A stretch of 64,000 nt of DNA. It comes from an uncultured Gemmatimonadales bacterium. GTDB lineage: Bacteria > Gemmatimonadota > Gemmatimonadetes > JACCXV01 > JAHWKZ01. The position numbers and the translations under genes were made by a program. Each line of letters opens with the position of its first letter. The first letter of the stretch is position 1. Under the pieces are notes generated by a model that was not told the origin of the DNA, searched no databases, and saw nothing but the letters and a program-made list of their open reading frames with translations. The stretch spans positions 1,252 through 65,251 of the forward strand of contig CAMYLR010000019.1 in NCBI GenBank assembly GCA_947259315.1, given 5' to 3'. This document shows, piece by piece, positions 757 through 35,005 of the stretch.

Positions 757-1644
757 ATGAAGATCATCGCGAACCCGCGCGCCGGGCACGGGAGGGGCGA
801 GAAGAACGTAGCGCAGCTCGCACGCATTATCCGGCGCCGCGGCCTTGATTGCAGACCGGTCCTGACCGAACACCCCGGCCATGCCACCGAGCTGGCCCGG
901 TGCGCGGCCGAAGCGGCCGAAGCGCGCCTGGTAGTGATGGGCGGCGACGGGACGGTCGGCGAGGTTGTGGAAGGGCTAGTCGGCACCAATACCGAGTTAG
1001 CGGTAGTCTCGGTGGGGACCGGCAATGACGTGGCCCGGAGCCTTGGCCTCCCGCTCAACGACATCGAGGCTGGACTCGACCTGGCGATCAGCGGATCGGC
1101 GATCGCGATCGATGTCGGCCGCGAGCGTGATCGTCACTTCATTTCCGTGCTTGGTCTCGGGTTCCCGACGATTGTGGCCGACGCAGCGAACCGTGCGCGT
1201 TGGCTCAGAGGACCACCGGCTTTTTTTGTTTCTGTCTACAAGGGTCTGTACCGCTTGCGTCCCGTGCATCTCGTGATCGAGCTCGATGATCAAACCCTGG
1301 AGCTGGAGTCGGTCGCAGTCATGATTCAGAACACGCCCTACACCGGGGGCGGGCTCCATATGGCCCCGGGGGCGGAGATCGATGATGGCTTGCTGGATAT
1401 CGTCGTGGTTGACGACATCGGCCGACTCGACCTGATGCTCAACTTTCCGAAGGTCTATCGCGGGAAACACCTCGATCACCCTAGCTTTAAGCTCTACCAG
1501 TCCCGAACGGTGCGCATCACGTCACCGGAGCCAATGCCGAAGATGTTCGATGGCGACGTGATAGGCAGCTCACCGCTCGAGGCTTCGGTGGTACCACGAT
1601 CACTCAGGGTCGTCGTGGGCCCATCGTCATCCAACGGAGGCTGA
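757..1644 (+). CDS. Diacylglycerol-kinase catalytic-domain lipid kinase (YegS/BmrU-like)
   Basis: Contains the GGDGTV motif and DAGK_cat-like architecture (NPRAGHGRG...VVMGGDGTVGEVVEGL). It is the first gene of a plus-strand operon; the next gene starts 6 nt downstream. Confidence 0.8.
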   Translation: MKIIANPRAGHGRGEKNVAQLARIIRRRGLDCRPVLTEHPGHATELARCAAEAAEARLVVMGGDGTVGEVVEGLVGTNTELAVVSVGTGNDVARSLGLPLNDIEAGLDLAISGSAIAIDVGRERDRHFISVLGLGFPTIVADAANRARWLRGPPAFFVSVYKGLYRLRPVHLVIELDDQTLELESVAVMIQNTPYTGGGLHMAPGAEIDDGLLDIVVVDDIGRLDLMLNFPKVYRGKHLDHPSFKLYQSRTVRITSPEPMPKMFDGDVIGSSPLEASVVPRSLRVVVGPSSSNGG

Positions 1645-1649
1645 CCCGG

Positions 1650-4600
1650 GTGGACACGATCTCCGAATTCTTGCACGGTAAACAGCTGCTCGTCACAGGC
1701 GCCACCGGGTTCCTGGGTCAACCGTTGGTAGAGAAGATCCTCTGGGCAGCACCCGATGTCGAACGCATCAACGTGTTGATTCGCCCCAAGCGGAAGTTCG
1801 GCGGTCGGATTCAAACGCCCGCTGAGCGGCTGCGCCGTGAGCTGTTTCAGTCCAGCGTCTTTGATCGGCTGCGCTATCGGCACGGCGAACAACTCGAACG
1901 CTTCTTGGCTCAGAAACTCCACGCCGTAGCTGGCGACATATCGGAGGATGGCCTGGGAATCGATTCCACCGTCCGGGCTCAGCTCGAACGCGAACTCGAC
2001 GTGGTAATCAACAGCGCAGCGGTGGTCTCGTTCGACGCGCCGTTGGACGACGCCCTAGATCTGAACACGCTTGGAGCGGGACGGGTGACCGACTTCACCG
2101 CTTCTTGCCAGCGGGCTGTACTGATCCACGTTTCGACAGCCTACGTCTGCGGGGCCACAGACGAACCCGTCCCCGAGACGTTTCATCACGCCGCCGATTC
2201 CGACGAACCGTTCCCGATGCGTCAGTTTACGGATCCAGAACGCGATATAGCGCGGATCCGGGAGATCATCACTGCCGTACGCGAACAAGGCCAGGGTGCC
2301 GACGTGCGCCGTGAGCTTGTCCAAGCGCTCGTCCAACGCCGACGCGGCCGTGGTGCCGGGCGAGCTGAGCCGCGACGCGAGATGATACAGAACCTCCGCA
2401 GTCGATGGATTCAGAACCGGCTGACGGAAGAAGGCATGAAGTGGGCTCGGGAACGAGGCTGGAACGACACCTACACGTACACAAAGGCGCTCGGTGAACA
2501 GGTTGTTCTGAGACAACGCGGTGACTTGCCAGTCGCAGTCGTGCGACCGGCGATCATCGAGAGCAGCCTGGCTGAGCCCAGCCCGGGCTGGCTAGACGGA
2601 TTGCGAATGGCTGACCCGTTGATCGCGGCCATCGGAAAGGGACGGTTACGATCCCTACCGTTGAACCCCAAAGTGACGCTCGACCTCGTTCCCGCCGACA
2701 TGGTCGTCAATACGATCTTGGCGGCAATGCCGAAGTTGGCCCAGGAGCGTGGGATAGCGATTTATCAAGTGGCTACCGGGTCGCGAAACCCGGTCACGAT
2801 GGGTCGCCTTCACGATCTCATCGTGCGGTACTTCACCGCGAATCCGATGCTGGACAAGAACGACCAGCCGATCCGGGTCAAGCCGCTGACGTTCCCCGAA
2901 CCGGAACAGTTTCGGCTGATGTATCGGGCCAGGGCGGAGCCACTCAAACGAGTCGAGCGTATGCTCCGACGTTTGGTCGCCTGGGGCGTGCTCAACAAGC
3001 AAAGTCAAAAATACCGACGCCGCCTCGCTGCCCGCCTCGCAGCGATGGAGACCCTCTACTACTACGGCGAACTGTACGAGCCGTACCTGAACCTCGATTG
3101 CCAGTTCAAGATCGACAACACGATGCAGCTGCTCGAGGAGCTGACCGAGGAAGAGCGGAGTCGTTACAACTTCGATGTCACAAGGATCAACTGGCCCCAC
3201 TACATGCACGTCCACATCGCCGGGGTCAAGAAGCACATCCTGAAAGTAGAACGCGCGGGAACGCTTGAGCTCGATGACGAGGCTGCCGCCCAACGAGCGT
3301 CCATTTCGACCATCAACGACTTGTTGAGACAATCGGCCGAGAAGTTTCCCGATCGAACCGCACTGCAGATGAAGAGGGACGGCCAGTGGGTCCAGATCAC
3401 CTACGCCGACCTGAAGGAGCGATCCGAAGAAATCGGCGAGCGGTTCCGGAGGCTCGGGTTTCACAAAGGTGATCGTGTGGTCCTCTACTCGGAGAACCAA
3501 CCCGAATGGGGCCTCGCCTACATGGGGGCGGCATCGATCGGACTGGTTGTTGTCCCACTCGATGCCCAGACATGGCACCGGGAGGTGTGGTCCACGGCCA
3601 AGTTTGTAGGCGCGCAGGCTATGCTCGCCTCAGAGTCGTGCTTCGATCGCTTGGCACCTGAAGGGTTGGAACAGAACGAACGGTCCGATGCGCCGATGCT
3701 GGTGCTCAACGTTGACCACAGCTGTCGACCTTTTGACCTCGACAGCTACCCCAGAAGCACCCGTCCAGCAGAGAAAGAACCGCCGGCCTTGAACAAGGCC
3801 GATCGGGTGCGACCCGACGATCCGGCGTCGATCATCTTCACCACCGGAACTGCGGTGGATCCGCGGGGCGCAATACACACACATCGCAATTTCTTGAACA
3901 ACCTGTTCGGTGTCAGCCGAACGCTATCGGTTAGCGAGCACGACCGATTGCTTTCGGTGCTCCCCCTCTATCATGCCTTGGAGTTCACATGCGGATTCCT
4001 CACACCTATCTACCACGGTGGGACGGTCAGCTATGCACAATCTCTGAAACCCAAGGTGATTTTGGAGACGATGCGCGAGACTGGCACCACGATCATGCTT
4101 GGGGTGCCAACACTGTACGCGCTCATTCGCGACGATCTCGAGCGGCGCGTTCTGCGGGCCGGGAAATCGCCGCTACGCTCAAACTTGATGGAGACGACCA
4201 AGCAGATAAGCCGTTCATGGGAGCGAACGTTTAACCGCAACATAGGCCGTCAGATCTTCAGTCGAGTTCATCAGGAGCTGGGCGGCAGCGTACGGTTCTT
4301 CGTAAGTGGTGGGTCCGCGCTCGGTGCGGAGCTATACGACGACTATCGCGCGATGGGCCTAACGATCTACGAGGGTTACGGACTCACCGAGACGGCTCCA
4401 GTTCTGACCGTCAACCCGTTGTATCAGAGTCGTCCCGCTTCATGCGGCAAACCACTGCCGGGTATCGAACTGAGACTCTACCACACGGACAACGAAGGTG
4501 TTGGTGAGATCATCGTTCAGAGTCCCAGCTTGATGAACAGTTACTACAACAACGTCGAGGCTAGCGAACGCGTCATGGTGGACGGATGGTTCCACACAGG

Positions 4601-6053
4601 CGATCTAGGCTGGGTCGACGCTGACGGGTACCTCTACATCACGGGTCGTAAAAAAGACGTCATCGTGACGGGGGCGGGCAAGAATGTCTACCCGATGGAT
4701 CTGGAAGCTATCTACCGAGCGCTACCTTCGGTGCGGGAGATTTGTGTCGTAGGAATCCCGAGCGGCCTGACGGAGGAGGTGCACGCAATCGTCGAACCGG
4801 ACCCGGCTCTGCTGCACGATGCATCGGCGGACGAAGTCCAGAAGCTGATTCAGCGCGAGGTCCAGGCCCAGGGACGCGAGCTGCCGAGCTACCATCGGCT
4901 GCAACAGGTTCACCTCTGGGCAGGGTTGTTGCCGCGAACAAGCGACGGGCAGATCGATCGGACGCGATTGCGAGGCTGGATCGAGCGCACTGCGCGCGCG
5001 CGCGCTGATCTCGAAACACCCACGGTCGCCAGCGGACCCGGCCAACTCGAACTCAAGGCCCAACTGTACGACGAGCTCGCGCGCCTCTCGGGTCGACCAC
5101 TCGAAGAGATCACGCCAGCCACTCATCTGTACGAAGATCTGGGGCTCGATTCACTCCGGGCGATCGAGCTCTTCTTGCTCGTCGAGCATGCGATCGGCGA
5201 AACGCTAGACGACGAAGCAGCGGCGGAAGTCGAAACGGTGGAGCAGCTGTTGGCGATCGTGGCCCCGGAGAAAAAGGTGCGGGAGAAGCTGGGCGCAATG
5301 CAGCCTGAACCCGCGCTTCGCTCAACCCTGCCATATCCAGAGCGCAAGGCCGTAGACCGGTGGTTGCTCGGATCCGCCGGCCGCGGACTCGAGGCCCTGT
5401 ACACATCGTACTTCGACCTCGAGCTAGTCCACACTGATCGGTTGCCGCGAAAGCGGCCGTATCTGCTCGCCGCAAACCACTCGAGCCATCTCGATGCGCC
5501 GGCCGTGCTGTCGGCCGTTCGACTCGCGCATGGCCCAGAGGCGGCGCGGTCTATCCACGTGCTCGGTGCTCGTGACTATTTCTTTGATACGACGCTGAAG
5601 GGTTGGTTCTTCAGCACGTTTCTGAACGTCGTGCCGATCGAGCGCGAAGAGACATCGTTGGCTGGGCTCAGAACCGTCAAGTCGATTCTCACGAGTGGTG
5701 AGTCGGCGCTGATCTTTCCCGAGGGGACCCGTTCGCGGAGCGGCGAAATCCAAGCGTTCAAGCCGGGTTTGGGACTGATCGCGTGGGAGCTTAGGACGCC
5801 CATAGTGCCGGTCTACATATCCGGAACGCACGACGCGTTGCCCGTCGGCCGAAACCTACCCCGCAGGCAACGGGTCAGGATCGAGTTTGGCTATCCAATA
5901 ACGATGGACGCGTACGATAAAGTCAGGGATCGGCTTCCGAATAACCGGCTCTACCGCGAGATTGCCGCTGACGTGCGGAATACGATCGTGAGCATGTCGG
6001 ATGGCCAACCAGATCCCGACAGCGGTAATGGCGCTGGTGGTCGAGCCGAATGA
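1650..6053 (+). CDS. ElbD-like multifunctional lipid enzyme: fatty acyl-CoA reductase (NAD_binding_4 + FAR C-terminal domain) - AMP-dependent fatty acyl ligase - ACP (PP-binding) - 1-acyl-glycerol-3-phosphate-type acyltransferase (PlsC)
   Basis: The 1467-aa ORF is uninterrupted. The N-terminus has LVTGATGFLGQPLVEKIL (Rossmann of male-sterility/FAR reductases). The middle has FTTGTAVDPRGAIHTHRNF, YEGYGLTETAPV and GWFHTGDLGWVDADGYLYITGRKKDVIV (AMP-binding core motifs). Next comes LYEDLGLDSLRAIELFLLVE (phosphopantetheine-attachment Ser). The C-terminus has LLAANHSSHLD (HX4D) and FPEGTRSRSGE (PlsC motifs). Confidence 0.85.
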   Translation: MDTISEFLHGKQLLVTGATGFLGQPLVEKILWAAPDVERINVLIRPKRKFGGRIQTPAERLRRELFQSSVFDRLRYRHGEQLERFLAQKLHAVAGDISEDGLGIDSTVRAQLERELDVVINSAAVVSFDAPLDDALDLNTLGAGRVTDFTASCQRAVLIHVSTAYVCGATDEPVPETFHHAADSDEPFPMRQFTDPERDIARIREIITAVREQGQGADVRRELVQALVQRRRGRGAGRAEPRREMIQNLRSRWIQNRLTEEGMKWARERGWNDTYTYTKALGEQVVLRQRGDLPVAVVRPAIIESSLAEPSPGWLDGLRMADPLIAAIGKGRLRSLPLNPKVTLDLVPADMVVNTILAAMPKLAQERGIAIYQVATGSRNPVTMGRLHDLIVRYFTANPMLDKNDQPIRVKPLTFPEPEQFRLMYRARAEPLKRVERMLRRLVAWGVLNKQSQKYRRRLAARLAAMETLYYYGELYEPYLNLDCQFKIDNTMQLLEELTEEERSRYNFDVTRINWPHYMHVHIAGVKKHILKVERAGTLELDDEAAAQRASISTINDLLRQSAEKFPDRTALQMKRDGQWVQITYADLKERSEEIGERFRRLGFHKGDRVVLYSENQPEWGLAYMGAASIGLVVVPLDAQTWHREVWSTAKFVGAQAMLASESCFDRLAPEGLEQNERSDAPMLVLNVDHSCRPFDLDSYPRSTRPAEKEPPALNKADRVRPDDPASIIFTTGTAVDPRGAIHTHRNFLNNLFGVSRTLSVSEHDRLLSVLPLYHALEFTCGFLTPIYHGGTVSYAQSLKPKVILETMRETGTTIMLGVPTLYALIRDDLERRVLRAGKSPLRSNLMETTKQISRSWERTFNRNIGRQIFSRVHQELGGSVRFFVSGGSALGAELYDDYRAMGLTIYEGYGLTETAPVLTVNPLYQSRPASCGKPLPGIELRLYHTDNEGVGEIIVQSPSLMNSYYNNVEASERVMVDGWFHTGDLGWVDADGYLYITGRKKDVIVTGAGKNVYPMDLEAIYRALPSVREICVVGIPSGLTEEVHAIVEPDPALLHDASADEVQKLIQREVQAQGRELPSYHRLQQVHLWAGLLPRTSDGQIDRTRLRGWIERTARARADLETPTVASGPGQLELKAQLYDELARLSGRPLEEITPATHLYEDLGLDSLRAIELFLLVEHAIGETLDDEAAAEVETVEQLLAIVAPEKKVREKLGAMQPEPALRSTLPYPERKAVDRWLLGSAGRGLEALYTSYFDLELVHTDRLPRKRPYLLAANHSSHLDAPAVLSAVRLAHGPEAARSIHVLGARDYFFDTTLKGWFFSTFLNVVPIEREETSLAGLRTVKSILTSGESALIFPEGTRSRSGEIQAFKPGLGLIAWELRTPIVPVYISGTHDALPVGRNLPRRQRVRIEFGYPITMDAYDKVRDRLPNNRLYREIAADVRNTIVSMSDGQPDPDSGNGAGGRAE

Positions 6054-6748
6054 GGCAGAAAGGAGCTTTTTTTGACGTCGATGGTACCCTGGTCGCGAGC
6101 AACATCGTTCGCTATGGCGTCGAGATCCGGACGAGCGGCATGGGGCCCGGTCAGCGAAAGCTCTGGACAGCGGCGTTTCTGCCGCGAATCCCTTACTACC
6201 TAGCACTCGACAGCTTTAGCCGAAAAGCGTTCCAGCGAGCGTTCTATCGCACCTACCGGTCTGTGTCCCCGGAAGAATTGCGGCAGCGCGCTGAGGAGCT
6301 GTTCGAGCATCACATTCGCCCGCGCCTTCTTCCGGCCGCAGTCGCGAGAGTCGCCGAACACCGCGATCGAGGCGATCATGTAGTCTTGGTCTCTGGCTCG
6401 TTGGAGGAGATCGTTCAACCGGTGGCCGCGCACTTGGAAGTCGACAACATCATTGCCGTTCGGCTGCGTATAAGCGATGGTGCTCACACCGGTGAACTCG
6501 AGGGAGAACCCCTCGCCGGCGAGACAAAAGCGGATGCGGTTTCAGAATACGCGGCCGAGAACCGAATCTCGCTCTCGCGATCGTCGGCGTACGCAGACAG
6601 CCTGGATGACGTGCCAATGCTTGAAACGGTCGGCCGGCCCGCAGTGGTCAATCCTGGGCGTCGTCTGCTTCAGACTGCCCGTGCCCGCGGCTGGGGGGTG
6701 TACGTGTGGGATAGCACCATTCCTGGAACCGCACCCCAGGTTCGCTGA
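6050..6748 (+). CDS. HAD-superfamily hydrolase (HAD-IB / phosphoserine-phosphatase-like)
   Basis: N-terminal FFDVDGTLV (DxDGT motif I). It overlaps the upstream megasynthase stop by 4 nt, indicating translational coupling. Confidence 0.7.
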   Translation: MRQKGAFFDVDGTLVASNIVRYGVEIRTSGMGPGQRKLWTAAFLPRIPYYLALDSFSRKAFQRAFYRTYRSVSPEELRQRAEELFEHHIRPRLLPAAVARVAEHRDRGDHVVLVSGSLEEIVQPVAAHLEVDNIIAVRLRISDGAHTGELEGEPLAGETKADAVSEYAAENRISLSRSSAYADSLDDVPMLETVGRPAVVNPGRRLLQTARARGWGVYVWDSTIPGTAPQVR

Positions 6749-6756
6749 TCGAGACC

Positions 6757-7977
6757 GTGCTGGCACTCGAGTACGTCCGCAGTGTGCCCCGGTTTCTGGC
6801 CACCCGGGCTCTCGGTCGACGCCGACCGGGGATCGGAACCTCGAAGCTCGGCGTAGTGCGCCTAACCGAAGTCGAGCCACCTCCGCTGCCAAGCCCCGAG
6901 TGGACGCGAGTAAGACCGATCTTGAGCGGGATCTGTGGGTCTGATCTGGCCACGATCTCGGCCCAGGGCAGCCCGTATTTCTCACCGCTGACCTCGACCC
7001 CGTTTGTTTTTGGACACGAGGTCGTCGGTGTCGTTGATGAAACCGGCGAGAACGTGACCTCCGTGCGAACCGGCGACCGCGTCTGTCTCGCGCCTCCGCT
7101 TCACTGCGCGATTCGTGGCATCGAAGATCTTTGCGCTGCATGTCGCGACGGCGACCTCGGCCACTGTCGCAACGTCACCCGCGGAGTGATTGGGGCCGGT
7201 ATCCAGACCGGGTACTGCCGTGATACAGGCGGCGGCTGGAGCCAGGGGTTCGTGGCCCACCAGTCGCAGCTGCACCGGGTCCCCGAGGGGTTATCCGACG
7301 CTGGGGCGGTGCTGGTCGAGCCGCTCGCCTGCTGTCTGAGCTCGGTTCAACAAGCACCGCTCGACGAAAACGATACCGTCGTCGTATTCGGCTGTGGGAC
7401 GATCGGCGTGCTCACGATTGCGGCGCTGCGATACGTGGGACCCAGTTGTCGTGTGATAGCGGTCGCCAAGTACCCCTACCAAGCGGATGTCGCGCGCCGT
7501 CTCGGGGCCGACCTCGTGGTGTCGACCGGCAGTGGAATGCGCGACCGCTTGGCGCGTGCGATCGGAGCGGAGCTCTTGCAGCCGGAGATAGGCCCACCGG
7601 TGGCGATCGGAGGTGCTGCGGTCGTCTTTGACTGCGTAGGCTCGGGGATCACGATCGACGACGCGATGCGCTTTACCCAAGCCAGAGGCGCCGTTATCGT
7701 GGTCGGCATGCCTGGCGTACCTCGTGGAATCGATTGGACGGCGATGTGGCACAAGGAGCTCGAAGTGCGCGGCAGCTACACGGCTGACGCAAACACCTTT
7801 GATCGGACGCTGTCACTCGCTACCGAACTAGACGACCAGCTCGCACCACTGGTTGGCGCCCGCTTTTCGCTCACCGACTACCGTGAGGCGATTCAGTGTG
7901 CGCTCGAGGCAGGCCGCCGCGGCGTCTCCAAGGTCGCCTTCGAGATCCACGACTCGACCGAGTCACTCGCGGGATGA
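6757..7977 (+). CDS. Zn-dependent alcohol dehydrogenase, MDR family (threonine/sorbitol/polyol dehydrogenase-like)
   Basis: GICGSDL and GHEVVGVVDE zinc-ligand motifs plus a GxGxxG (FGCGTIG) Rossmann. The true start is probably internal, around 6850 (KLGVVRLTEVEPP resembles the usual MKAVVL N-terminus). Confidence 0.75.
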   Translation: MLALEYVRSVPRFLATRALGRRRPGIGTSKLGVVRLTEVEPPPLPSPEWTRVRPILSGICGSDLATISAQGSPYFSPLTSTPFVFGHEVVGVVDETGENVTSVRTGDRVCLAPPLHCAIRGIEDLCAACRDGDLGHCRNVTRGVIGAGIQTGYCRDTGGGWSQGFVAHQSQLHRVPEGLSDAGAVLVEPLACCLSSVQQAPLDENDTVVVFGCGTIGVLTIAALRYVGPSCRVIAVAKYPYQADVARRLGADLVVSTGSGMRDRLARAIGAELLQPEIGPPVAIGGAAVVFDCVGSGITIDDAMRFTQARGAVIVVGMPGVPRGIDWTAMWHKELEVRGSYTADANTFDRTLSLATELDDQLAPLVGARFSLTDYREAIQCALEAGRRGVSKVAFEIHDSTESLAG

Positions 7978-9524
7978 AGTACCTGACCTACTCGGGAAAC
8001 ACGCTGCTGGGAGCTGATCTGCCCGATCGAGCTACCGTTCTCTACCCGCCGCCAAAGATCGCGGGCATTCCCAAGCGCGGCATTCCGCGTGCCCTGAGGG
8101 AAGCACTGGAGGAGCCTGTCGGCATGGAGCCGCTGGCCGAACTCGTTGGGCCAAGCTCACGGGTGTTGATCGCTTTCGACGACAACTGCCAACCGTTCCC
8201 GTTGATGGCGCAGCCGGATATCCGGCAGATCATGATCACACGCCTGCTCGAGCTACTCGAAGATCAAGGCGTGAAGGAAGAGAACGTCCAACTGCGCTGC
8301 GCGGTCGCACTGCACCGCAAGATGCAGCATCACGAGTTGGTACACATGCTGGGCGAAAAGATCATGGCCCGGTTTTGGCCTGATCAACTGATGAACTTCG
8401 ATGCCGAAGATGCGGACGATATCGTCGCGCTAGGTGAGACCGACGAGGGAGAGCCTGTAGAAACGAGCCGGGCGGTAATCGAAAGCGATCTCGTCATTTA
8501 CGTCGACACCGTCCAGATCCCGCTAAACGGGGGTCACAAGTCAGTAGCCGTCGGGTTCGGTACGTACAACTCGATCGCTCCCCATCACGCACCACAAATG
8601 ACCGAGCACACGCCACACGTGATGCAACCCGACGGCTCTTGCATGCACGCGACGATACGCCGCATGAGCGAGGTTATTCAGAAACACTGTCGAATCATGG
8701 TCATCGAAGCTGCGATGAACGGAGCCACCTATCCCCAACATCTCGAGTACCTGAGCAAGTCGCCGGATCGATTGAGTTTCGCCGAACGGCTCCTGCGAAA
8801 GACAGCCCCGATGTCCATGCGGGCATTGCCAGAGCCAGCGCGAGCCAAGGTTTTTCGCGGTATACGATCCAAGTACGCGCCTATGGCGATCACCGCTGGG
8901 GCGATCGACGACGTTCATCAAGTCACGTTGGATGCACTACGACCTCAACTGGAAGTTGCGGTCGATCGGCAGTTCGACACGTTGGTCTTTGGGTTACCCG
9001 ACCTCTCACCGTACGCGATCGATGCCCGCATCAACCCCGTGCTCGTCGTCAGCGATGTCCTCGGCTACGTGTTCAACTGGTTTTGGAATCGGCCATTTAT
9101 CAAACCGGGCGGTGCGGTGATCATCTTGAACCCGGTGTTCGAGGTGTTTCACGATCGATATCACGTTGCGTACCAGCGGTTCTGGGAGGAAGTATTGCCC
9201 GCCACAACCGACCCGTTCACGATGCAAGCCGAGTTTCAAGAGTCGTTTGCGCGCGATCCCGAGTTGATCGATTGCTACCGGCATCGATTTGCTCACCACG
9301 GCTTCCATCCATTCACGGTGTGGTACTGGGCGACCTACCCACTCAAGTACTTATCCGAGACGATACTTGTGGGACCCCCGGATGATCGCGCGGCCCGGCG
9401 ATTGGGCGTATCATGGGCGCCCAACCTGGATCATGCGCTGGCACACGCGAAGGAGGTCACCGGCGGTGACGATGTGGTTGCGCTTACGATCCCGCCATTC
9501 ATGTACTTGAGCGTAACCGGCTGA
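7974..9524 (+). CDS. LarA-family protein (lactate racemase-like, DUF2088; putative nickel-pincer-nucleotide-dependent racemase/epimerase)
   Basis: The N-terminus (LYPPPKIAGIPKRGIPRALREALEEPVGMEPLAELVGPSSRVLIAFDDNCQPFP) follows the LarA N-terminal pattern (LYP...A.REAL..P.G..PL.EL.....V.I..DD.TRP.P). The start ATG at 7974 overlaps the ADH stop (ATGA). LarA is about 100 aa shorter. Confidence 0.5.
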   Translation: MKYLTYSGNTLLGADLPDRATVLYPPPKIAGIPKRGIPRALREALEEPVGMEPLAELVGPSSRVLIAFDDNCQPFPLMAQPDIRQIMITRLLELLEDQGVKEENVQLRCAVALHRKMQHHELVHMLGEKIMARFWPDQLMNFDAEDADDIVALGETDEGEPVETSRAVIESDLVIYVDTVQIPLNGGHKSVAVGFGTYNSIAPHHAPQMTEHTPHVMQPDGSCMHATIRRMSEVIQKHCRIMVIEAAMNGATYPQHLEYLSKSPDRLSFAERLLRKTAPMSMRALPEPARAKVFRGIRSKYAPMAITAGAIDDVHQVTLDALRPQLEVAVDRQFDTLVFGLPDLSPYAIDARINPVLVVSDVLGYVFNWFWNRPFIKPGGAVIILNPVFEVFHDRYHVAYQRFWEEVLPATTDPFTMQAEFQESFARDPELIDCYRHRFAHHGFHPFTVWYWATYPLKYLSETILVGPPDDRAARRLGVSWAPNLDHALAHAKEVTGGDDVVALTIPPFMYLSVTG

Positions 9525-9531
9525 AGAACAC

Positions 9532-10209
9532 GTGACTCAACACGGCGTTCGGCTCTATTTCGATTTCATCTCCCCGTACTCTTACCTAGCGCTATCTCAA
9601 GCCAAAATGTTTGGCGAACGGTACGCAATCGAGTGGGAGATACGGCCGATCCTGTACGCCGCGATACTGGAAGCCACCGGGTTGGTGGGTCCAGCCGAGC
9701 AACCGATCAAACGGCGTTACACGGCGCACGATATCATCCGCGCGGCGGACCGATTGGGTGTCCCCTTGGTCGGTCCTCCGGCCCATCCATTCAACCCCTT
9801 GATGGCCCTCCGAACAACTTGCCTCCACCAAGATCATCCGCGTAGCGTCGAGCTAGCCGTCGAGCTGGCCACCCTCTGTTGGGGTCAGGGACGACCGCTG
9901 ACAGAGTACGAAGTGCTCGAGCAAGCCCTTCAAGCGACCGCGCTCGAGACACCCGATCTAGCTGACCAGATCACCGCGCCGAGCACCAAGGCTTTGCTCA
10001 AGCAGAACACGGCGCAGGCACTCGCCGCGGGTGTGTTCGGTGTGCCGACCTTTCTGTGGCAGGGGGAGGTCTTCTGGGGTCACGACCGCATGGACCATTT
10101 GGCGGACCGACTCGCCGGCAGGCTCGATTCACCCGCAACCCGCGCCCAAGCCTGGGCCGCTAAGCCGCGCGAAGCCGAGCGACCGAGCTCCCCTTGGCCA
10201 AAGTCCTAA
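9532..10209 (+). CDS. DsbA-like thioredoxin-fold protein, 2-hydroxychromene-2-carboxylate isomerase family
   Basis: YFDFISPYSYLA N-terminus and ...GVFGVPTFLW... typical of the HCCA isomerase / DsbA-like family. There is no CxxC motif. Confidence 0.6.
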   Translation: MTQHGVRLYFDFISPYSYLALSQAKMFGERYAIEWEIRPILYAAILEATGLVGPAEQPIKRRYTAHDIIRAADRLGVPLVGPPAHPFNPLMALRTTCLHQDHPRSVELAVELATLCWGQGRPLTEYEVLEQALQATALETPDLADQITAPSTKALLKQNTAQALAAGVFGVPTFLWQGEVFWGHDRMDHLADRLAGRLDSPATRAQAWAAKPREAERPSSPWPKS

Positions 10210-11336
10210 TCGTAGCCGGCGAGCCTTCGGGCGACGCCATTGGCGCCGAACTCGTCGACGCGGCGCGCAAAGTGGCCCCGGCGATTGAGTTCTTCGGCGC
10301 GGTGGGTCCAGGTCTCGAAAGCGCGGGAGCGGAGCGTGTCGTCGAGACTCGCGAGCTCACCGCCCTGGGCCTGACCGAGGTCCTGCCCCGCTTGCCAGCG
10401 ATTCGTCGGGCGATGAAGCGATTAGAGCGAGCGGCCAAGGAAAACCGCGCGATCGGCGCCGTGCTCATCGATTCACCCGATTTCAACTTGCGCCTAGCCC
10501 GGAAGCTCGATCGACGAACGATCCCGGTCGTTCAGTACGTCAGTCCAACCGTTTGGGGCTGGCGTCCGGGACGCGTCTCTGCGATCGAGAGAAGCGTGCG
10601 TCGAGTGTTGCTCACGTTGCCGTTTGAGGCCGAGTTCTATCGTGATTCCCGCGTCGACGCCGTCTACGTGGGTCACCCGGCTTTGGATCGCATCCCAAAG
10701 GATCTCGGTGACCGCGATCTGATCGCCAAACGACTCGGCTTAGACGCGTCGCTTCGCTGGGTGGCCCTCTTGCCGGGCAGCCGAACGGGCGAACTCGACC
10801 GGATGGGTCCGCTGCTGGCACAGAGCGCCGCCTGCATTCGGCAACGAATCCCAGACATCGAGCTCTTGGCGATGGTCGCACCGGGGCTCGACTCTTCGGC
10901 GGTCGCCTCCTCCCTCGCCGGGGTCGCGGGGCTGAAACTCATCGATACGGACCGCCACGTCGCATTAGGTCATTGCGATGCGGCGATCGCTAGTTCGGGA
11001 ACCGTGTCTCTAGAGCTGGCGATGCTCGGCGTCCCACACGTGGTGGCTTACCGGCTCTCTAGTGTCACGTTCGCGATCGCCAGGCGTATGGCCAGGGTGC
11101 GCTGGATCGCGCTGCCCAACCTGATCGCCGGTCGAGCGATCGTTCCCGAGCTGATTCAACGCGACGCCGAGCCGCACCGGCTGGCGCAACCGGTGATCGA
11201 ATGGCTCGAAGATGACCGCGCGCGTGCGGCGATCAGGGCAGAGTTGCGAAACGTATCTCAGGCCCTTGGTCCGCCCGGCGTCGCCGAACGCGCGGCCAGA
11301 GCTGCGCTCTCCGTCTTTGGTGTTCCCGTCGAGTGA
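10194..11336 (+). CDS. lpxB: Lipid-A-disaccharide synthase
   Basis: MAKVLIVAGEPSGDAIGAELV, VLIDSPDFNLRLARKL, VQYVSPTVWGWRPGR, LLPGSRTGE, ALPNLIAGR: collinear with E. coli LpxB motifs. Confidence 0.85.
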   Translation: MAKVLIVAGEPSGDAIGAELVDAARKVAPAIEFFGAVGPGLESAGAERVVETRELTALGLTEVLPRLPAIRRAMKRLERAAKENRAIGAVLIDSPDFNLRLARKLDRRTIPVVQYVSPTVWGWRPGRVSAIERSVRRVLLTLPFEAEFYRDSRVDAVYVGHPALDRIPKDLGDRDLIAKRLGLDASLRWVALLPGSRTGELDRMGPLLAQSAACIRQRIPDIELLAMVAPGLDSSAVASSLAGVAGLKLIDTDRHVALGHCDAAIASSGTVSLELAMLGVPHVVAYRLSSVTFAIARRMARVRWIALPNLIAGRAIVPELIQRDAEPHRLAQPVIEWLEDDRARAAIRAELRNVSQALGPPGVAERAARAALSVFGVPVE

Positions 11337-11441
11337 TTCTCGTCGCCGCTCAGCGCAACCGTTTGACTTGCATTGGAGCGGTAACGATTATTCGTTCACG
11401 GTACGCTCCATCACCGATCCCAAACGTAGCGAGGCGATAGC

Positions 11442-11876
11442 ATGGCTGGCGGAACCTTGGTTTCTACGCTGAGCCGGCTCTTCTGCGGTCTAGCGTTCGT
11501 TTTTCACGGCGCCCCAAAGGTCTTTAACCTCGAGGCCACGTCGGGCTTCTTCGAGAGCGTCGGATTTCCATCCTGGTTGGCGATCCCGGTCGCCGGGCTC
11601 GAGTTCTTCGGCGGGATATTCCTGCTAGTGGGGTTTCTCACCCGTTGGTTATCCGTGCTCTTCATCCTGGAGATGGTTGTAGCGATCGTGGCCGTCCACC
11701 TGCCAAATGGGTGGAACGTTTTTGAGGGCGGCTACGAGTACAGTCTCGCATTGATCGTCATGCTGATCGGTGTCATCGTGCTCGGTCCCGGCTCATTCTC
11801 GATCGACGGACAGCTCCGGAAGAGTCGCGAGGGGGCTACCTCACCTGAACCCGACCCACCCAGCCTGGAGACGTGA
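11442..11876 (+). CDS. DoxX family membrane protein
   Basis: About 140 aa with four predicted TM helices and a DoxX-like pattern (FVFHGAPKVFN...FFGGIFLLVGFLTRW). Confidence 0.7.
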   Translation: MAGGTLVSTLSRLFCGLAFVFHGAPKVFNLEATSGFFESVGFPSWLAIPVAGLEFFGGIFLLVGFLTRWLSVLFILEMVVAIVAVHLPNGWNVFEGGYEYSLALIVMLIGVIVLGPGSFSIDGQLRKSREGATSPEPDPPSLET

Positions 11877-13426
11877 GCCCGGCGGCAACCTTCCTCTCAG
11901 CGGCGCCCGAGGTCCGGCTGGCAAAAGCGTTCGAAGCGCCGTTCGCCAACTTTCTCGCCACGGCGCGAACGTGCTACAGCTCCAAGGGCATCATCCCCGA
12001 CGTCGAAATCAACGATCGGTGGATCGGGCTGGCCAGGAGTCTGTACCAGGCCGGGCACCACACCACCCTGCAGCATGCTCAGTTTCAATTCTCCCTCGCC
12101 AATGTCAGCCGCCATTTTATCTGGAGCTTTCTCCACAGTCATCCGTTCTACAACAGCGAGCAGGTGAGTCAGCGCTACGTCGAGGTGAAGCCGGGAAACG
12201 TCGTGATCCCGCCGTTGCAGAGCGAAGCCCTGGCGAGATATCAATCGACGGTGGGGCGGCAAATGAAGGAGTACCGCGAGCTGATCGAGCTGTTGACGCC
12301 GGTGACCGAGGATGCCTATTACGAGCGCTTCCCAGGCCGAAGATCGAACGCTGAGAAGTACGCCAAAGAGATCCAGAAACGAGCGCAGGAGATCGCTCGA
12401 TACGTGTTGCCGATCGGCACGTTCGCATACCTGTATCACACCGTCAGTGGTATCACACTGTTGCGCTACGCAAGGCTGTGCGAGCAAGTCGACACGACGG
12501 CGGAGACAAGGCTAGTCGTCAAGGCGATGGTGGACGCGTTGTTGGAATACGATCCCGCCTACGAGACGATCCTGGAGGAATCGCTGCCGTTGGATTCCAC
12601 TCCTGAACACAGCTTCCTGAGCGCGCGCAACGGCGATGGCGAGCGACGGCGCACGTTCCGTAGGGAATTCGATCGTCAGCTGGATGGCAGATTGTCGCAG
12701 CTGGTCGACTACGGGGCTCGCAACGAACAGGTGCTGGCTGACGCTGTGCGTGAGGTGCTGGGCGAACCCAAAGCCGCGCTCTCCGATGACGAGGCGATCG
12801 GCCTGGCGCTCGATTCACGGCTCAACCCGTTACTCGGCGAAGCACTCAATCTGACCACACACGCCAAGCTCACACGGGCCCTTTATCACCCCCATTACAC
12901 GTTTCGGAAACGGCTCTCGCACGCCGGTGACTCACAAGACCAACGGCATCGAATGACACCTGGCTCGCGGCCAGCGCTTACCGCGCACATCACCCGTGAA
13001 CCGGACTACCTCGTTCCACGGTTGGTACTTGAGGACGCGCGTGTCGAAACAGCGTACCGACAGAGCATGGAGCGCACTTGGGAAGACATCGACGCCGTGC
13101 GGGCGGCTGGCGCCCCGGCAGAGTTCGCCGAATACCTTCTGCCGAACGCGGTCGCCATCCGGTTCACCGAGTCGGCGGACCTGCTGAACTTGTTCCACAA
13201 GCACACGATGCGTCTGTGTTACAATGCGCAGGAGGAGATTTGGCAGGCATCGCTCGAAGAGGCGCAACAAGTCACCGCAGTCAACCCGCGAATCGGGCGC
13301 CATCTACTACCACCCTGCACGGTCCGCTTTCACGCCGGTCAACGACCGATCTGCCCCGAAGGGACACGCTTCTGCGGCGAGCGGGTCTGGAAGCTCGATG
13401 TGGACGCGTTTACCCGCCGTATCTGA
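11873..13426 (+). CDS. Divergent ThyX-fold (flavin-dependent thymidylate synthase-like) protein with a large internal insertion
   Basis: N-terminal half: AGHHTTLQHAQFQFSLANVSRHFIWSFLHSHPFYNSEQVSQRY aligns with ThyX HGHETPFEH..FTF......ARQWFRHRIASYNELSGRY. C-terminal: LLNLFHKHTMRLCYNAQEEIWQ aligns with ThyX FLNLRADSHAQWEIQ. The protein is 517 aa versus ~220-250 for ThyX. The start overlaps the DoxX stop. Confidence 0.5.
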   Translation: MSPAATFLSAAPEVRLAKAFEAPFANFLATARTCYSSKGIIPDVEINDRWIGLARSLYQAGHHTTLQHAQFQFSLANVSRHFIWSFLHSHPFYNSEQVSQRYVEVKPGNVVIPPLQSEALARYQSTVGRQMKEYRELIELLTPVTEDAYYERFPGRRSNAEKYAKEIQKRAQEIARYVLPIGTFAYLYHTVSGITLLRYARLCEQVDTTAETRLVVKAMVDALLEYDPAYETILEESLPLDSTPEHSFLSARNGDGERRRTFRREFDRQLDGRLSQLVDYGARNEQVLADAVREVLGEPKAALSDDEAIGLALDSRLNPLLGEALNLTTHAKLTRALYHPHYTFRKRLSHAGDSQDQRHRMTPGSRPALTAHITREPDYLVPRLVLEDARVETAYRQSMERTWEDIDAVRAAGAPAEFAEYLLPNAVAIRFTESADLLNLFHKHTMRLCYNAQEEIWQASLEEAQQVTAVNPRIGRHLLPPCTVRFHAGQRPICPEGTRFCGERVWKLDVDAFTRRI

Positions 13427-13494
13427 TCACCGCTAGGAATAGAGCGGTTCGAACCGTTCGTCGAAGCCAGGGGTAATCTGCACGAGGAGGGCGC

Positions 13495-14151
13495 GTGCAA
13501 CCTGACATCAACACATGGTGGGGACGGCCTTTCAGGCTCGCCGTACTGGCGGCGGCCGCGATCCACGTAGTGGCACTGCTGACGCTTTCGATCCCGGGGT
13601 CCAAGACGTACGACGATCGGCTCGCCGATAGCGAATTGCTTCTCGTTCCAATGGTCGTGAGTCAGCCTCGTCAGACAGCCCCGGAACCCCCGGTACAACA
13701 ACTCGACGATGAGGTTCCGCCAGAGACTCCGGCAGTGCAAATCGACATCGAGATCCCCCAACCCGCGATGTCGCCAGCAGCACCGTTGACCAGAACGATT
13801 CCGCCGACAACGCTAAACGCCCTTACTGAGCCGACCCAATCGCTGATCGTCAAGCCAGCCGGAATCGGGCGCCGGACGTCCCCCATCGACGCCAAGATGT
13901 TGGCGATAGCCCGAGCCGAGTCCCTCCTCACCTCACGGTTGGCTTCATTGCCCGGAGCAGGCGCTCCGAAACCGAAGCGGCCGATCGACCTGGCCGAGGA
14001 GGGCGGCGTGACGGTCGTGATCCCATGGTCGGGGTTCCTCCCTGCGGATCGATACGACGAAGTCTGGCGCGCGGACCGCTGCCGCAACACGGACCGCGAC
14101 GATGACACCGACAAACCGGGCGAAGCCGCGGCTCGTCGGGCGCAGTGCTGA
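13495..14151 (+). CDS. Hypothetical membrane-anchored proline-rich protein
   Basis: N-terminal TM helix (LAVLAAAAIHVVALLTLSI) followed by a Pro/Glu-rich linker (PEPPVQQLDDEVPPETPAVQ). No confident family assignment. Confidence 0.3.
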   Translation: MQPDINTWWGRPFRLAVLAAAAIHVVALLTLSIPGSKTYDDRLADSELLLVPMVVSQPRQTAPEPPVQQLDDEVPPETPAVQIDIEIPQPAMSPAAPLTRTIPPTTLNALTEPTQSLIVKPAGIGRRTSPIDAKMLAIARAESLLTSRLASLPGAGAPKPKRPIDLAEEGGVTVVIPWSGFLPADRYDEVWRADRCRNTDRDDDTDKPGEAAARRAQC

Positions 14152-14177
14152 CCTCGGACTATCGGAAAAACAGGTAG

Positions 14178-15491
14178 CTAGACGTAACCTCTCAGGCGGG
14201 TCGCTTCCATGACGCGCGAGATCCCGATCATGTAGGAAGCGTTGCGACACGTTAACCGCTCGGCTTGGCTGGTTGTAAATACGTCCCGCCAGGCCAAATT
14301 GATGAATCGCTTGAGCTCCTCATTCACCTTTCCGAGTGACCAATGGAACTTCTGGATGTTCTGAACCCACTCGAAGTACGACACGATCACCCCACCGGCA
14401 TTGACTAGAAGATCCGGCAAAACCAGGACCCCTCGTTGGTTGAGAACATCATCGCCACCAGGGGTCACGGGATGGTTGGCGGCCTCGACGACAACCTCGG
14501 CCTGTACGCGTGCGGCGACTTCCGGATTGATCACGCCGCCGATCGCGGCGGGCATAAGAATGTCACAATCACACGTCAGTAGCTCTTCCTGAGTCAACGG
14601 ATCGGCGTCCGGGAACCCGACCACGCTACCGGTGTCGTCAACGTGCTTCAGCAACCGCGGGATATCGAGCCCGTCGCCATCGAAGATCCCGCCGTCGACA
14701 TCCGAAACCGCCACGATGGTGAGCCCCATACCGTCCAGAATGCGAGCTCCCCAGCTGCCGACATTGCCAAAACCCTGGATCGCGACTCGGGTGCCATCGA
14801 TTGAAAAGCCACAATCAGCCGCCGCCGATTCGAGCACGTACGCGGCCCCCTGGGCGGTCGCCTGTTCCCGCCCCGGCGAGCCCCCGAGTGGAATGGGCTT
14901 GCCAGTTACGATCCCCGGCGTGTGACCATAACGCTGACCGTACGCGTCCATCATCCAGGCCATGATCTGCGCATTGGTGTTCATGTCAGGTGCGGGTATA
15001 TCCCGATTGATTCCGAGGATGTACGAGATGTGCGAGGTATAGCGGCGCGTCATGTCGCGTAGCTCGCGCGGACTCATTCCCCGTGGGTCGACCTGAATGC
15101 CGCCTTTCGCGCCGCCAAAGGGAACGTCGACGATCGCGGTCTTCCACGTCATCAGCGACGCCAGTGCCCGGATTTCGCTCAGGTCTGCCTCCGGATGATA
15201 CCGGATTCCCCCTTTGTACGGTCCGCGAGCGCCATTGTGTTGCACGCGATAGCCGATAAAAACCTCGAGGGTCCCGTCGTCCATCCTCACCGGCACCTCG
15301 ACCCGCATCTCGCGATACGGTGTCTTGAGCAGCAGCCGAAAGTCCTCTGAAACGCCAGCTGCGGTAGCCCCGATGTCGAAGTAGTGATTGACCGCGGCGA
15401 ACGGATCGGTTTCGAGCTCGGCCGCCGCAGCGTCGACGGTCCCGGTATCGCGCGCTGCGAGCGTCGATTCAGCGTTCGGTGGGTTAGACAT
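14178..15491 (-). CDS. gdhA: NAD(P)-specific glutamate dehydrogenase
   Basis: Glu/Leu/Phe/Val dehydrogenase signatures (VPFGGAKGGI, GFGNVGSW Rossmann). About 437 aa. Confidence 0.9.
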   Translation of the reverse strand: MSNPPNAESTLAARDTGTVDAAAAELETDPFAAVNHYFDIGATAAGVSEDFRLLLKTPYREMRVEVPVRMDDGTLEVFIGYRVQHNGARGPYKGGIRYHPEADLSEIRALASLMTWKTAIVDVPFGGAKGGIQVDPRGMSPRELRDMTRRYTSHISYILGINRDIPAPDMNTNAQIMAWMMDAYGQRYGHTPGIVTGKPIPLGGSPGREQATAQGAAYVLESAAADCGFSIDGTRVAIQGFGNVGSWGARILDGMGLTIVAVSDVDGGIFDGDGLDIPRLLKHVDDTGSVVGFPDADPLTQEELLTCDCDILMPAAIGGVINPEVAARVQAEVVVEAANHPVTPGGDDVLNQRGVLVLPDLLVNAGGVIVSYFEWVQNIQKFHWSLGKVNEELKRFINLAWRDVFTTSQAERLTCRNASYMIGISRVMEATRLRGYV

Positions 15492-34455: not shown

Positions 34456-34742
34456 TCTTGCAAACCGGTTGAGTCCAAGAAGTCGATTCGATCCACCACA
34501 CCAATGACTAGGTTCTGGAGCGGAACCCGCTCACGACCCGTAACAAGCCGAGCCCCAGTCCCCTCGCGAGAGACAAGCACCTTGTCACCGATACCGGCGT
34601 CGACCCGGTCAACGGCGATCATCTCTTCGCCTTCGTCGCGACCATCGATCGCCAACGGTTGAACGACCAGCAGCTTGTACTCCGCCAGCTCGGGGTCCTT
34701 GTCGCTGGACGTGACGGTTCCGGTCACCCGCGCGAGGATCAT
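34452..34742 (-). CDS. Bacterial microcompartment vertex (pentamer) protein, EutN/CcmL/PduN family (BMC-P)
   Basis: [29 protein letters not shown]...AVDRVDAGIGDKVLVSREGTGARLV...LQNLVIGVVDRI matches the PF03319 pattern (ARViGtVvsT.K...G.KLL.vq...AvD.vGAG..E.VLv..Gs.AR......D.aivgiVD). Its start overlaps the upstream BMC-P stop (ATGA). Confidence 0.8.
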   Translation of the reverse strand: MILARVTGTVTSSDKDPELAEYKLLVVQPLAIDGRDEGEEMIAVDRVDAGIGDKVLVSREGTGARLVTGRERVPLQNLVIGVVDRIDFLDSTGLQE

Positions 34743-35005
34743 GTCCGGTCGACCGAGTCGATCTTGCCGACGATCGCCGCATCCACCGCGCAGAAGGGAT
34801 CCCTTAACGGCAACGAAGCTTCGCGGCTGGTGACATAGTAGACCCACTCATCATCACCGTAGGATCCCGTATCCACGGCCACCAGCGGCTTGGCGGAGGG
34901 TTGCCCTTCGGCGTCAGTGGGCTCGATCCATAGCAGCCGATAGCCGACAAGCGGCTCGATCTTGCGGGTGCTCACCACCCGCCCAATCACACGTGCAAAG
35001 TGCAT
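34739..35005 (-). CDS. Bacterial microcompartment vertex (pentamer) protein, EutN/CcmL/PduN family (BMC-P), second paralog
   Basis: [29 protein letters not shown]...[23 protein letters not shown]...[12 protein letters not shown]. Same family pattern; 88 aa. Confidence 0.8.

Follow-up and report, generated by a model that had tools for sequence, protein, structure and literature searches.

A five-gene Gemmatimonadales operon as a probable rearranged relative of the myxobacterial elb ether-lipid cluster

Can a bacterium outside the Myxococcota make ether lipids with enzymes of the elb type? The question is raised by a 64-kb stretch of DNA from an uncultured Gemmatimonadales bacterium (the window), which carries at positions 757–9524 an intact operon of five closely spaced + strand genes encoding a lipid kinase, an ElbD-type multidomain enzyme, a HAD-IB phosphatase, a zinc-dependent alcohol dehydrogenase (Zn-ADH) and a LarA-family protein. 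In Myxococcus xanthus, deletion of elbD blocks the formation of alkyl and vinyl ether lipids, and inactivation of elbE lowers them (PMC9131029). Our comparison indicates that the window operon is a rearranged relative of the myxobacterial elb cluster and not a new kind of system. It represents a distinct, widespread variant in which Zn-ADH takes the place of the short-chain dehydrogenase/reductase (SDR), a lipid kinase is added, the ANL-type adenylation domain is atypical and ElbC comes from a sister clade. We put the probability that the region is a phylum-spanning elb variant, whose product would be an alkyl-glycerol ether lipid, at roughly 0.6.

The operon and its ElbD-type enzyme

Consecutive genes of the operon are spaced by 5, −4, 8 and −4 nt. 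The kinase gene (757–1644, 295 aa) is followed by the gene of the ElbD-type enzyme (1650–6053, 1467 aa), whose stop codon is overlapped by the start of the HAD-IB phosphatase gene (6050–6748, 232 aa) as ATGA (4 nt); the Zn-ADH gene (6757–7977, 406 aa) and the LarA-family gene (7974–9524, 516 aa) complete the set, all on the + strand. Both the 1467-aa and the 406-aa open reading frames (ORFs) start with GTG. For the last gene the automatic ORF call begins at 7896, but we prefer the ATG at 7974, since this start agrees with all homologues and overlaps the Zn-ADH stop codon as ATGA. On direct reading, the catalytic motifs of the kinase, of the fatty acyl reductase (FAR), acyl carrier protein (ACP) and PlsC domains, of the HAD phosphatase and of the Zn-ADH are all intact. 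Five tightly coupled genes of these families had been proposed in an earlier note made from the letters of this DNA alone, and ORF spacing, Pfam and NCBIfam agree with that proposal.

The 1467-aa protein contains all five Pfam domains that the note had expected: NAD_binding_4 (residues 15–356, E = 3e-64), Sterile (470–532, 5e-13), AMP-binding (560–966, 8e-74), PP-binding (1138–1202, 4e-10) and Acyltransferase (1261–1391, 9.9e-24); AMP-binding_C is found at residues 1018–1100. Its FAR region (1692–3245, +) is composed of NAD_binding_4 (1692–2717) and Sterile, or FAR_C (3057–3245), and has the hallmarks of such a reductase, with GxxGxxG present as GATGFLG (1698–1718), YxxxK as YTYTK (2472–2486) and the FAR_C domain in place. 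The ANL region (3327–4949, +) is followed by the carrier-protein domain (5061–5255, +), which holds its attachment serine in GLDSL (5142–5156), and by the PlsC-type acyltransferase domain (5430–5822, +), with HX4D as HSSHLD (5478–5495) and FPEGTR at 5715–5732. The four-activity fusion is therefore borne out, with each of the motifs named in the note in place. Best PDB matches of the ORF are the fatty acyl-CoA reductase 7eoz (E = 1e-87) and FadD13.

A homologue search with this ORF gave 802 proteins with E ≤ 1e-10, of which the best 120 were examined. These are 1438–1522 aa long, cover 98–100% of the query and have the same five core Pfam domains; the best named matches are from Gemmatimonadota, with 63–74% identity. 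The ORF is thus uninterrupted, with no sign of separate genes, and a frameshift or an assembly fusion is excluded by these full-length relatives. Myxococcota ElbD proteins align over the full length with about 30–32% identity and have the same four activities, confirming the ElbD-type identity. Both FAR motifs are kept in window-type and Myxococcota-type ElbD. Among 12 ElbD sequences compared, the [LMF]DSL carrier motif is found in 11 (the sequence from locus L153 is gapped there), HX4D in all 12 and FPEGTR in 11, with FPEGGR in L163. The earlier note had further suggested that the N-terminal reductase departs from the published ElbD order, which proved mistaken: M. xanthus ElbD itself has an N-terminal FAR1-like domain, followed by acyl-CoA synthetase, ACP and AGPAT-like acyltransferase domains (PMC9131029), the Myxococcota loci have the same order, and ElbD homologues of sponge symbionts are described with a reductase-A-T-AGPAT order as in M. 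xanthus (PMC9426513).

The adenylation domain sets the window-type proteins apart. We aligned the window protein, the same best 120 of the 802 relatives and eight Myxococcota-type ElbD sequences, nearly all of which keep the FAR, ACP and PlsC motifs (L153 and L163 depart as noted above). In the best 120, the A3 P-loop reads T-T-G-T-A-V-D-P-[KR]-G (TTGTAVDPRG in the window; residues 731–740, 3840–3869), whereas seven of the eight Myxococcota-type sequences have T[SA]GT[ST]GxPK[GA], L153 being atypical at A3. The A10 lysine is present in all eight Myxococcota-type proteins and in only 11 of the 120, which otherwise have E, A, S or Q; the window protein has Q1101 at this position, within PRTSDGQIDR (residues 1095–1104, 4932–4961). 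Motifs A5 (YGLTE), A7 (GWFHTGD) and A8 (GRKKD) are retained in the window domain, and its clade keeps A5, A7 and A8 as well. The A10 lysine is needed for the adenylation half-reaction of ANL enzymes. Since it is mostly replaced and the P-loop is non-canonical, acyl activation may be impaired or altered in the window-type ElbD clade. Split-type clusters, described below, contain neither an ANL nor an ACP domain, and this part of the enzyme therefore appears dispensable for the module. We found no mention of the degenerate P-loop and A10 loss of window-type ElbD in the literature searched.

Relation to elb clusters and the nature of ElbC

The M. xanthus cluster elbABCDE (MXAN_1531–1527, MIBiG BGC0000871; Lorenzen et al. 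2014, summarised in PMC9131029 and PMC13012113), the first elb cluster to be described, comprises elbA, a dispensable NAD epimerase gene, elbB, encoding a HAD phosphohydrolase, elbC, of 'unknown function', elbD and, downstream of it, elbE, a gene of the NAD epimerase/dehydratase family. A genome-contig search with window ElbD mostly found unrelated acyl-CoA ligases, matched through generic motifs such as DGWFHTGD; only the Myxococcales loci L001 and L013 and some split Acidobacteriota loci were informative. L001 has a HAD gene (7712–8374), a 541-aa Lar_N gene (8371–9996), a 1456-aa ElbD gene (9986–14356) and an Epimerase-family SDR gene (14353–15351), a layout that agrees with the published elbB-C-D-E order. 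L013, also from Myxococcota, likewise has a Lar_N gene between HAD and ElbD. The window HAD, LarA-like and ElbD proteins are 39%, 36% and 32% identical to their L001 equivalents over essentially the full length (35–36% for the LarA-like protein across L001 and L013). By position and alignment, the window LarA-like protein thus appears to be the counterpart of ElbC, and we refer to it as ElbC below.

The window operon and the M. xanthus cluster have in common the four ElbD activities in the same order, a HAD protein corresponding to ElbB, a Lar_N protein of ~520–540 aa in the place of ElbC (a position observed in Myxococcota metagenome-assembled genomes, MAGs), an operon organisation and a dehydrogenase of NAD(P) type. 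They differ in gene order, which is kinase-D-B-ADH-C in the window and (A)-B-C-D-E in M. xanthus. SDR ElbE and ElbA are missing from the window, which has a zinc-dependent medium-chain dehydrogenase instead and the lipid kinase in addition; identities to M. xanthus-type proteins are ~30–39%, and the canonical P-loop and A10 lysine kept in Myxococcota-type ElbD are absent.

Catalogues of ElbD homologues and elb-like clusters already exist for Acidobacteriota, Poribacteria and many further phyla. The window operon shares the NRPS-like elbD core and an elbB homologue with the elb-like families of sponge-symbiont Acidobacteriota and Poribacteria and with Acidobacteria subdivision 4. In the sponge symbionts, diacylglycerol (DAG) kinases adjoin elbD, split elbD variants occur and Acidobacteriota are among the hosts; these reports are antiSMASH/BiG-SCAPE catalogues (PMC9426513; bioRxiv 10.64898/2026.06.23.733905). 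Racemase, DUF2088, PF09861 and Lar_N are terms absent from the sponge papers and their text supplements, and the main text of bioRxiv 10.64898/2026.06.23.733905 does not mention an alcohol dehydrogenase. Gemmatimonadota are not named as hosts of elb clusters in the literature we consulted on them. The earlier note had matched the accessory set to no ether-lipid locus. This does not hold, the HAD protein being an ElbB homologue, the LarA-like protein the ElbC counterpart and a DAG kinase having been reported beside elbD; accessory novelty remains only for Zn-ADH, to which nothing in the M. xanthus cluster corresponds. Two of the note's three arguments for novelty fail.

The kinase belongs to the YegS/BmrU/DgkB family, with Pfam matches to DAGK_cat (4.9e-31) and YegS_C (2.8e-39), a TIGR00147 (YegS/Rv2252/BmrU lipid kinase) score of 169.9 bits against a cut-off of 118.65 and a GGDGT motif at 940–954. 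It occupies the same position in L081, L168, L169, L170, L172 and L083. The phosphatase matches Pfam HAD (1.3e-39) and TIGR01490 (HAD-IB; 151.7 bits, cut-off 98.3), as does the L001 protein at the elbB position in the case of TIGR01490, and has DVDGT at 6074–6088 and DSLDD at 6596–6610. Zn-ADH is a medium-chain dehydrogenase of polyol/threonine/sorbitol-dehydrogenase type (ADH_N and ADH_zinc_N), with GICGSD, GHE, a Cys-rich structural-zinc segment and GCGTIG. It scores under all NCBIfam equivalog cut-offs, and in the PDB it is closest to RspB, ketose reductase, threonine dehydrogenase and sorbitol dehydrogenase.

ElbC matches Pfam Lar_N (1.8e-34) and scores 515 bits with NF052592 (LarAH14/15/16), below the cut-off of 740, whereas the Myxococcota protein at the ElbC position in L001 passes with 834 bits. 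The window ElbC belongs to a sister clade. The best PDB sequence match is 9q2u (E = 4e-39). An AlphaFold2 model (pLDDT 86.1, pTM 0.89) superimposes on 9q3k with TM scores of 0.78/0.83 and on canonical LarA with about 0.6/0.72, and Foldseek matches it to 9q3k, 9q3j, 9eid and 5huq at probability 1.00. The model thus predicts the fold of the single-His nickel-pincer nucleotide (NPN) enzymes.

Three LarA-equivalent motifs are present on the + strand: LHRK at 8310–8321 (His108 of LarA), GGHK at 8529–8540 (Lys184) and PHH at 8580–8588 (His200). H114 in LHRK, K189 in GGHK and H205, sixteen residues on, align with their equivalents in 9q2u. H114-R115, G186-G187-H188-K189, H204-H205 and D69-D70 do not vary among 24 ElbC-type sequences drawn from both clades, and the Lys and His equivalents are likewise constant in a set of 16. 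The equivalents of NPN-tethering Lys184, nickel ligand His200 and the first catalytic residue His108 are all kept. In contrast, the position of the second catalytic residue His174, ten residues before the lysine, is Thr179 in the window and T, S, A, G or I across the family. That the family retains these Lys and His residues but has lost the second histidine is not mentioned in the literature we searched, nor did we find a report linking ElbC or ether lipids to lactate racemase. The earlier note's description of a LarA-family racemase homologue agrees with Lar_N and the fold; the second catalytic histidine, required for racemisation or epimerisation, is absent. Because of this absence, a function of ElbC as a glycerol-phosphate racemase giving archaeal-type sn-glycerol 1-phosphate is unlikely.

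The closest known relatives of ElbC are found in the single-His LarA branch (LarAH 14/15/17; 9q2u, 9q3k and 9q3j; bioRxiv 10.1101/2025.08.19.671153). Both groups have Lar_N, the two-domain fold, a long form of ~500–520 aa, the lysine, the nickel-ligand histidine and the first catalytic histidine, and both lack the second. ElbC is 20–23% identical to the solved single-His proteins; its His174 position is variable (T/S/A/G/I) where the single-His branch has an invariant Asn, and it is found among lipid genes and not, as they are, among glycolytic or carbohydrate genes. In the LarA literature, LarAH groups 14 and 15 are described as lacking His174, with substrates that are not known, and a tested group-14 representative was inactive on all reactions assayed. 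The same literature reports a LarA homologue in 80–100% of Myxococcota species, which fits with ElbC being that homologue.

Conservation of the operon and its surroundings

To sample the operon from the ElbD side, nine loci were compared: the window, L081, L172, L168, L169, L170, L083/L084, L082 and L171. Identical five genes in identical order are found in six of them (the window, L081, L172, L168, L169 and L170), with unrelated flanks. L081 (GCA_035524965.1, named Gemmatimonadota) encodes proteins 59–79% identical to those of the window; L172 (GCA_975305605.1) is of Gemmatimonadota type, and both have a ThiO-like gene upstream. The ElbD proteins of L168 and L169 are named Acidobacteriota by a source. 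L083/L084 has the first four genes, the ElbC-type gene of the same genome being located elsewhere (L085), and in L082 and L171 ElbD stands by itself with no operon partners. The five-gene operon thus appears to be conserved in both Gemmatimonadota and Acidobacteriota. ElbC is its most conserved protein, with 79%, 69% and 66% identity in L081, L168 and L169 compared to 69%, 59% and 57% for ElbD. The earlier note had counted recurrence of the architecture with the same neighbours as a point against itself; the identical operon does recur, in two phyla, and the objection applies in part.

F420 biosynthesis genes (CofC, CofD and F420 ligase) adjoin the ElbD gene or operon on the 5′ side in L082, L083/L084, L169 (named Acidobacteriota) and L171, and a CofG/H-type radical SAM protein and F420_oxidored are also present in three of these four loci. 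Their proximity may reflect nothing more than synteny, or it may have a functional basis that involves a redox cofactor.

For a view from the ElbC side, we retrieved 80 metagenome loci with a profile built on 16 ElbC-type proteins and searched them by tblastn, using the proteins of the window and of L001 as queries. Three architectures emerge. The Myxococcota type is HAD – ElbC – full ElbD – SDR; the split type is stand-alone FAR – HAD – Zn-ADH – ElbC – stand-alone PlsC acyltransferase; and the window type is kinase – ElbD – HAD – Zn-ADH – ElbC, with a related form in which ANL and FAR are encoded by separate genes (L093 and L095). All 19 ElbC loci outside the window-type clade that are flanked by 4 kb or more on each side adjoin elb genes: 17 have FAR, 17 HAD and 15 a PlsC acyltransferase.

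This survey also places the dehydrogenase. No SDR of the ElbE type is found by Pfam in the five-gene operon. Clusters of the window and split types have a Zn-ADH orthologue directly before the ElbC gene, never together with SDR, and the two dehydrogenases are mutually exclusive across 86 ElbC-containing loci. Since six of the 19 loci have Zn-ADH, seven have SDR and none has both, we infer that Zn-ADH is a non-orthologous replacement of the SDR ElbE.

Some ElbC-type genes have other neighbours. In L085 (5742–11557), the gene directly follows that of a 1370-aa Condensation–AMP-binding–peptidyl carrier–luciferase protein, near a CDP-alcohol phosphatidyltransferase, and in L086 (9310–11548), from Phycisphaerales, it directly follows genes for a stand-alone PlsC acyltransferase and a GT4 glycosyltransferase. 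Both loci suggest other lipid contexts for the LarA clade of ElbC. In L093 (5296–7311) and L095 (5931–8084), ORFs of 671–717 aa with coding-like G+C content at third codon positions are situated between the stand-alone FAR and HAD genes. Neither has a Pfam match, and that of L093 has no NCBIfam match either; they may represent an unrecognised component of the cluster.

Upstream of the operon, and divergent from it, lies a ThiO-like gene of the DAO family (723–1, − strand), which is cut by the window edge. Its best match is ThiO, and in L081, where the gene is complete, its counterpart scores above the ThiO equivalog cut-off, in agreement with the ThiO-like oxidase of the earlier note. Only 33 bp (724–756) separate its start from that of the kinase gene. 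As this is too short for two conventional promoters, the start sites or promoters of one or both genes must be located in coding sequence.

Downstream, a DsbA-like gene (9532–10209, +; Pfam DSBA) begins 7 nt after the ElbC gene and is overlapped by 16 nt by lpxB (10194–11336, +; Pfam LpxB; TIGR00215 298 bits, cut-off 190). No + strand terminator-like site was found between the genes from 757 to 11336, in a promoter and terminator scan that itself performed at chance level and is uninformative. The DsbA-like gene and lpxB may be co-transcribed with the elb-type operon in this genome, that is, with an outer-membrane lipid gene. This pair is not found downstream of the operon in L081, L168, L169, L170 and L172, which differ there. 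Because the genes downstream of ElbC vary among loci, we place the conserved boundary after five genes.

The remaining window is ordinary chromosomal housekeeping, including dnaK, tig, clpP, clpX, hslUV, topA, gcvT and pilQ/pilO. A ThyX (Thy1) ORF at 11873–13426 (+) matches Thy1 at two separate places; at 517 aa it is about double the length of the 211-position ThyX model and may be a tandem-fused flavin-dependent thymidylate synthase. At 33484–34847 (−), the genes for a DeoC/LacD-family aldolase and for a microcompartment vertex protein (EutN/CcmL) share 4 nt; the nearby ORFs that were scanned include none for shell proteins. A tRNA-Leu gene (anticodon TAG, 38941–39025, +) is the sole RNA gene found in the window by Rfam and ARAGORN.

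Proposed pathway, alternatives and meaning

We propose the following pathway. The FAR domain would reduce an acyl thioester (on the ElbD carrier, acyl-ACP or acyl-CoA) to the fatty aldehyde or alcohol, and the PlsC domain would acylate a glycerol-phosphate or dihydroxyacetone-phosphate (DHAP)-type backbone. In a third step, ElbC and the dehydrogenase would carry out redox chemistry at glycerol C2 for installing and finishing the sn-1 alkyl ether: ElbC, the predicted holder of the nickel-pincer nucleotide, would take and give back a hydride on a single face, with Zn-ADH in the role of an alkyl/acyl-DHAP reductase. Finally, the HAD phosphatase and the lipid kinase would interconvert phosphorylated and free alkyl(acyl)glycerols. 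The product would be a 1-O-alkyl(-2-acyl)glycerol(phosphate), serving as a membrane or signalling lipid and formed independently of AGPS, the FAD-dependent alkyl-DHAP synthase.

The aerobic route of eukaryotes and myxobacteria (FAR1, GNPAT, AGPS and acyl/alkyl-DHAP reductase) has FAR1-like and GNPAT/AGPAT-like activities in common with the operon, whose dehydrogenase is possibly an alkyl-DHAP reductase and whose phosphatase and kinase would act on the glycerol backbone. The window differs in that AGPS is lacking, activities are fused in one polypeptide and the LarA-type protein is the sole conserved candidate for the unexplained step. The anaerobic systems PlsAR and Ger are oxygen-sensitive reductases that turn an ester into an ether on intact lipids. 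Their proposed product class is the same (bacterial alkyl/alkenyl glycerol ethers), but the proteins are unrelated and have no homologue here.

The assignment to an elb pathway follows from the shared ElbD domain order, the synteny with L001 and the identities of 39%, 36% and 32%, as well as from the preservation of the operon as a unit in six of nine loci and from the 19 of 19 ElbC loci situated beside elb genes. Several points weigh against it. The ether-forming step is not known even in M. xanthus (PMC9131029), and the third and fourth steps above are inference only. Outside Myxococcota, no experiment has yet connected an ElbD homologue with ether lipids, and in Pontiella, which has such a homologue, ether lipids were not detected (PMC11868695). 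Myxobacterial ElbD is only ~30% identical, and the window-type clade combines a non-canonical P-loop in its adenylation domain with the loss of the A10 lysine in most members, so that the acyl activation performed in vitro by M. xanthus ElbD may not extend to it. The equation of Lar_N with M. xanthus ElbC (MXAN_1529) comes from synteny in Myxococcota MAGs and the published gene order, and should be read as probable. Within the window-type ElbC clade, seven of ten loci with long flanks, L085 and L086 among them, have no elb neighbour, so the role of ElbC may be wider or different. Among the ~55 ORFs of the 64-kb window we found no larB, larC or larE, which were not found in the flanks of L081–L087 and L168–L172 either, and among the window ORFs we found neither AGPS domains (FAD_binding_4 or FAD-oxidase_C) nor CarF. 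Nevertheless, an ether-lipid role is the best available reading. The ether/alkyl-glycerolipid interpretation of the earlier note hence stands in part, with its ElbD type, gene coupling and ether-lipid role, and falls in its domain order and accessory set.

A bolder version of the proposal, which we regard as doubtful, casts ElbC as the so far missing catalyst by which bacteria form ether lipids without AGPS. The enzyme would transiently withdraw the hydride at C2 from a glycerol phosphate that carries an acyl or hemiacetal linkage, or alternatively a covalent adduct would form at C4 of the cofactor, as with flavin in AGPS. The sn-1 oxygen substituent would then be exchanged or dehydrated and the hydride returned to the same face, and the neighbouring dehydrogenase (Zn-ADH in the window, the SDR ElbE in myxobacteria) would complete the C2 redox state.

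Of the competing explanations, the one that fares best is that the operon makes some other specialised lipid. Zn-ADH and the LarA-like protein would modify a backbone or head group and not the ether bond, giving for instance a polyol-phosphate or hydroxy-acid backbone in oxidised or isomerised form, or glycerol phosphate of unusual stereochemistry, while ElbD supplies and attaches an acyl or alkyl chain. Single-His LarA homologues have indeed been proposed to perform non-racemase hydride shifts, possibly on phosphorylated sugars, ElbC-type genes are found beside other lipid genes in L086 and L085, and the HAD-IB family also takes in phosphoserine and histidinol phosphatases. We nonetheless consider this explanation unlikely: the five-gene operon has no conserved head-group transferase, ElbC lacks the second catalytic histidine for stereo-inversion, and the sole genetic data on a homologous cluster indicate ether-lipid formation.

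The genetic requirement for the M. xanthus cluster in ether-lipid formation (PMC9131029) also argues against a fatty-alcohol, wax-ester or neutral-lipid pathway, in which the FAR domain would yield fatty alcohol, PlsC, kinase and phosphatase would remodel ordinary acylglycerols, and Zn-ADH and the LarA-like protein would act on an unrelated polyol or hydroxy acid. Such a pathway would be in keeping with the FAR domain, which is closest to alcohol-forming fatty acyl-CoA reductases (7eoz), with the polyol, threonine and sorbitol dehydrogenases that are nearest to Zn-ADH, with the soluble 2-hydroxy acids used by characterised LarA homologues and with the existence of at least one carrier of an ElbD homologue, Pontiella, without detectable ether lipids (PMC11868695). 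The operon has no wax synthase (WS/DGAT), however, and the joint occurrence of FAR, HAD, dehydrogenase, ElbC and PlsC in three arrangements across phyla is hard to explain by two unrelated pathways, which makes this explanation improbable. A chance adjacency of the five genes or an artefactual large ORF, for which one could cite the split versions found elsewhere (FAR and acyltransferase separate; FAR and A domain separate), is scarcely credible and is already refuted by conservation, given the full-length best 120 of 802 homologues from independent assemblies, the same gene order in five further loci with different flanks and the 4-nt overlaps of start and stop codons.

How the elb ether bond forms without AGPS has been an open question since 2014; ElbC was drawn with a '?' in a 2022 review, and the figure legend of a 2026 paper gives it no function. 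With the elb-variant reading come testable leads, since ElbC is a homologue of nickel-pincer type, travels together with FAR, PlsC, HAD and dehydrogenase and is the most conserved protein of the operon. If ElbC were indeed the catalyst, this would be the first lipid-metabolic and the first non-isomerase role for the nickel-pincer cofactor, and bacterial ether-lipid formation would be nickel-dependent. ElbD homologues serve as markers for producers of ether lipids and branched glycerol dialkyl glycerol tetraethers in soils, sediments and sponges. In the large Gemmatimonadota/Acidobacteriota clade the adenylation domain is atypical and the dehydrogenase a different one, so that an elbD match alone may not predict the same chemistry. 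With these proteins, Gemmatimonadota become candidate ether-lipid producers.

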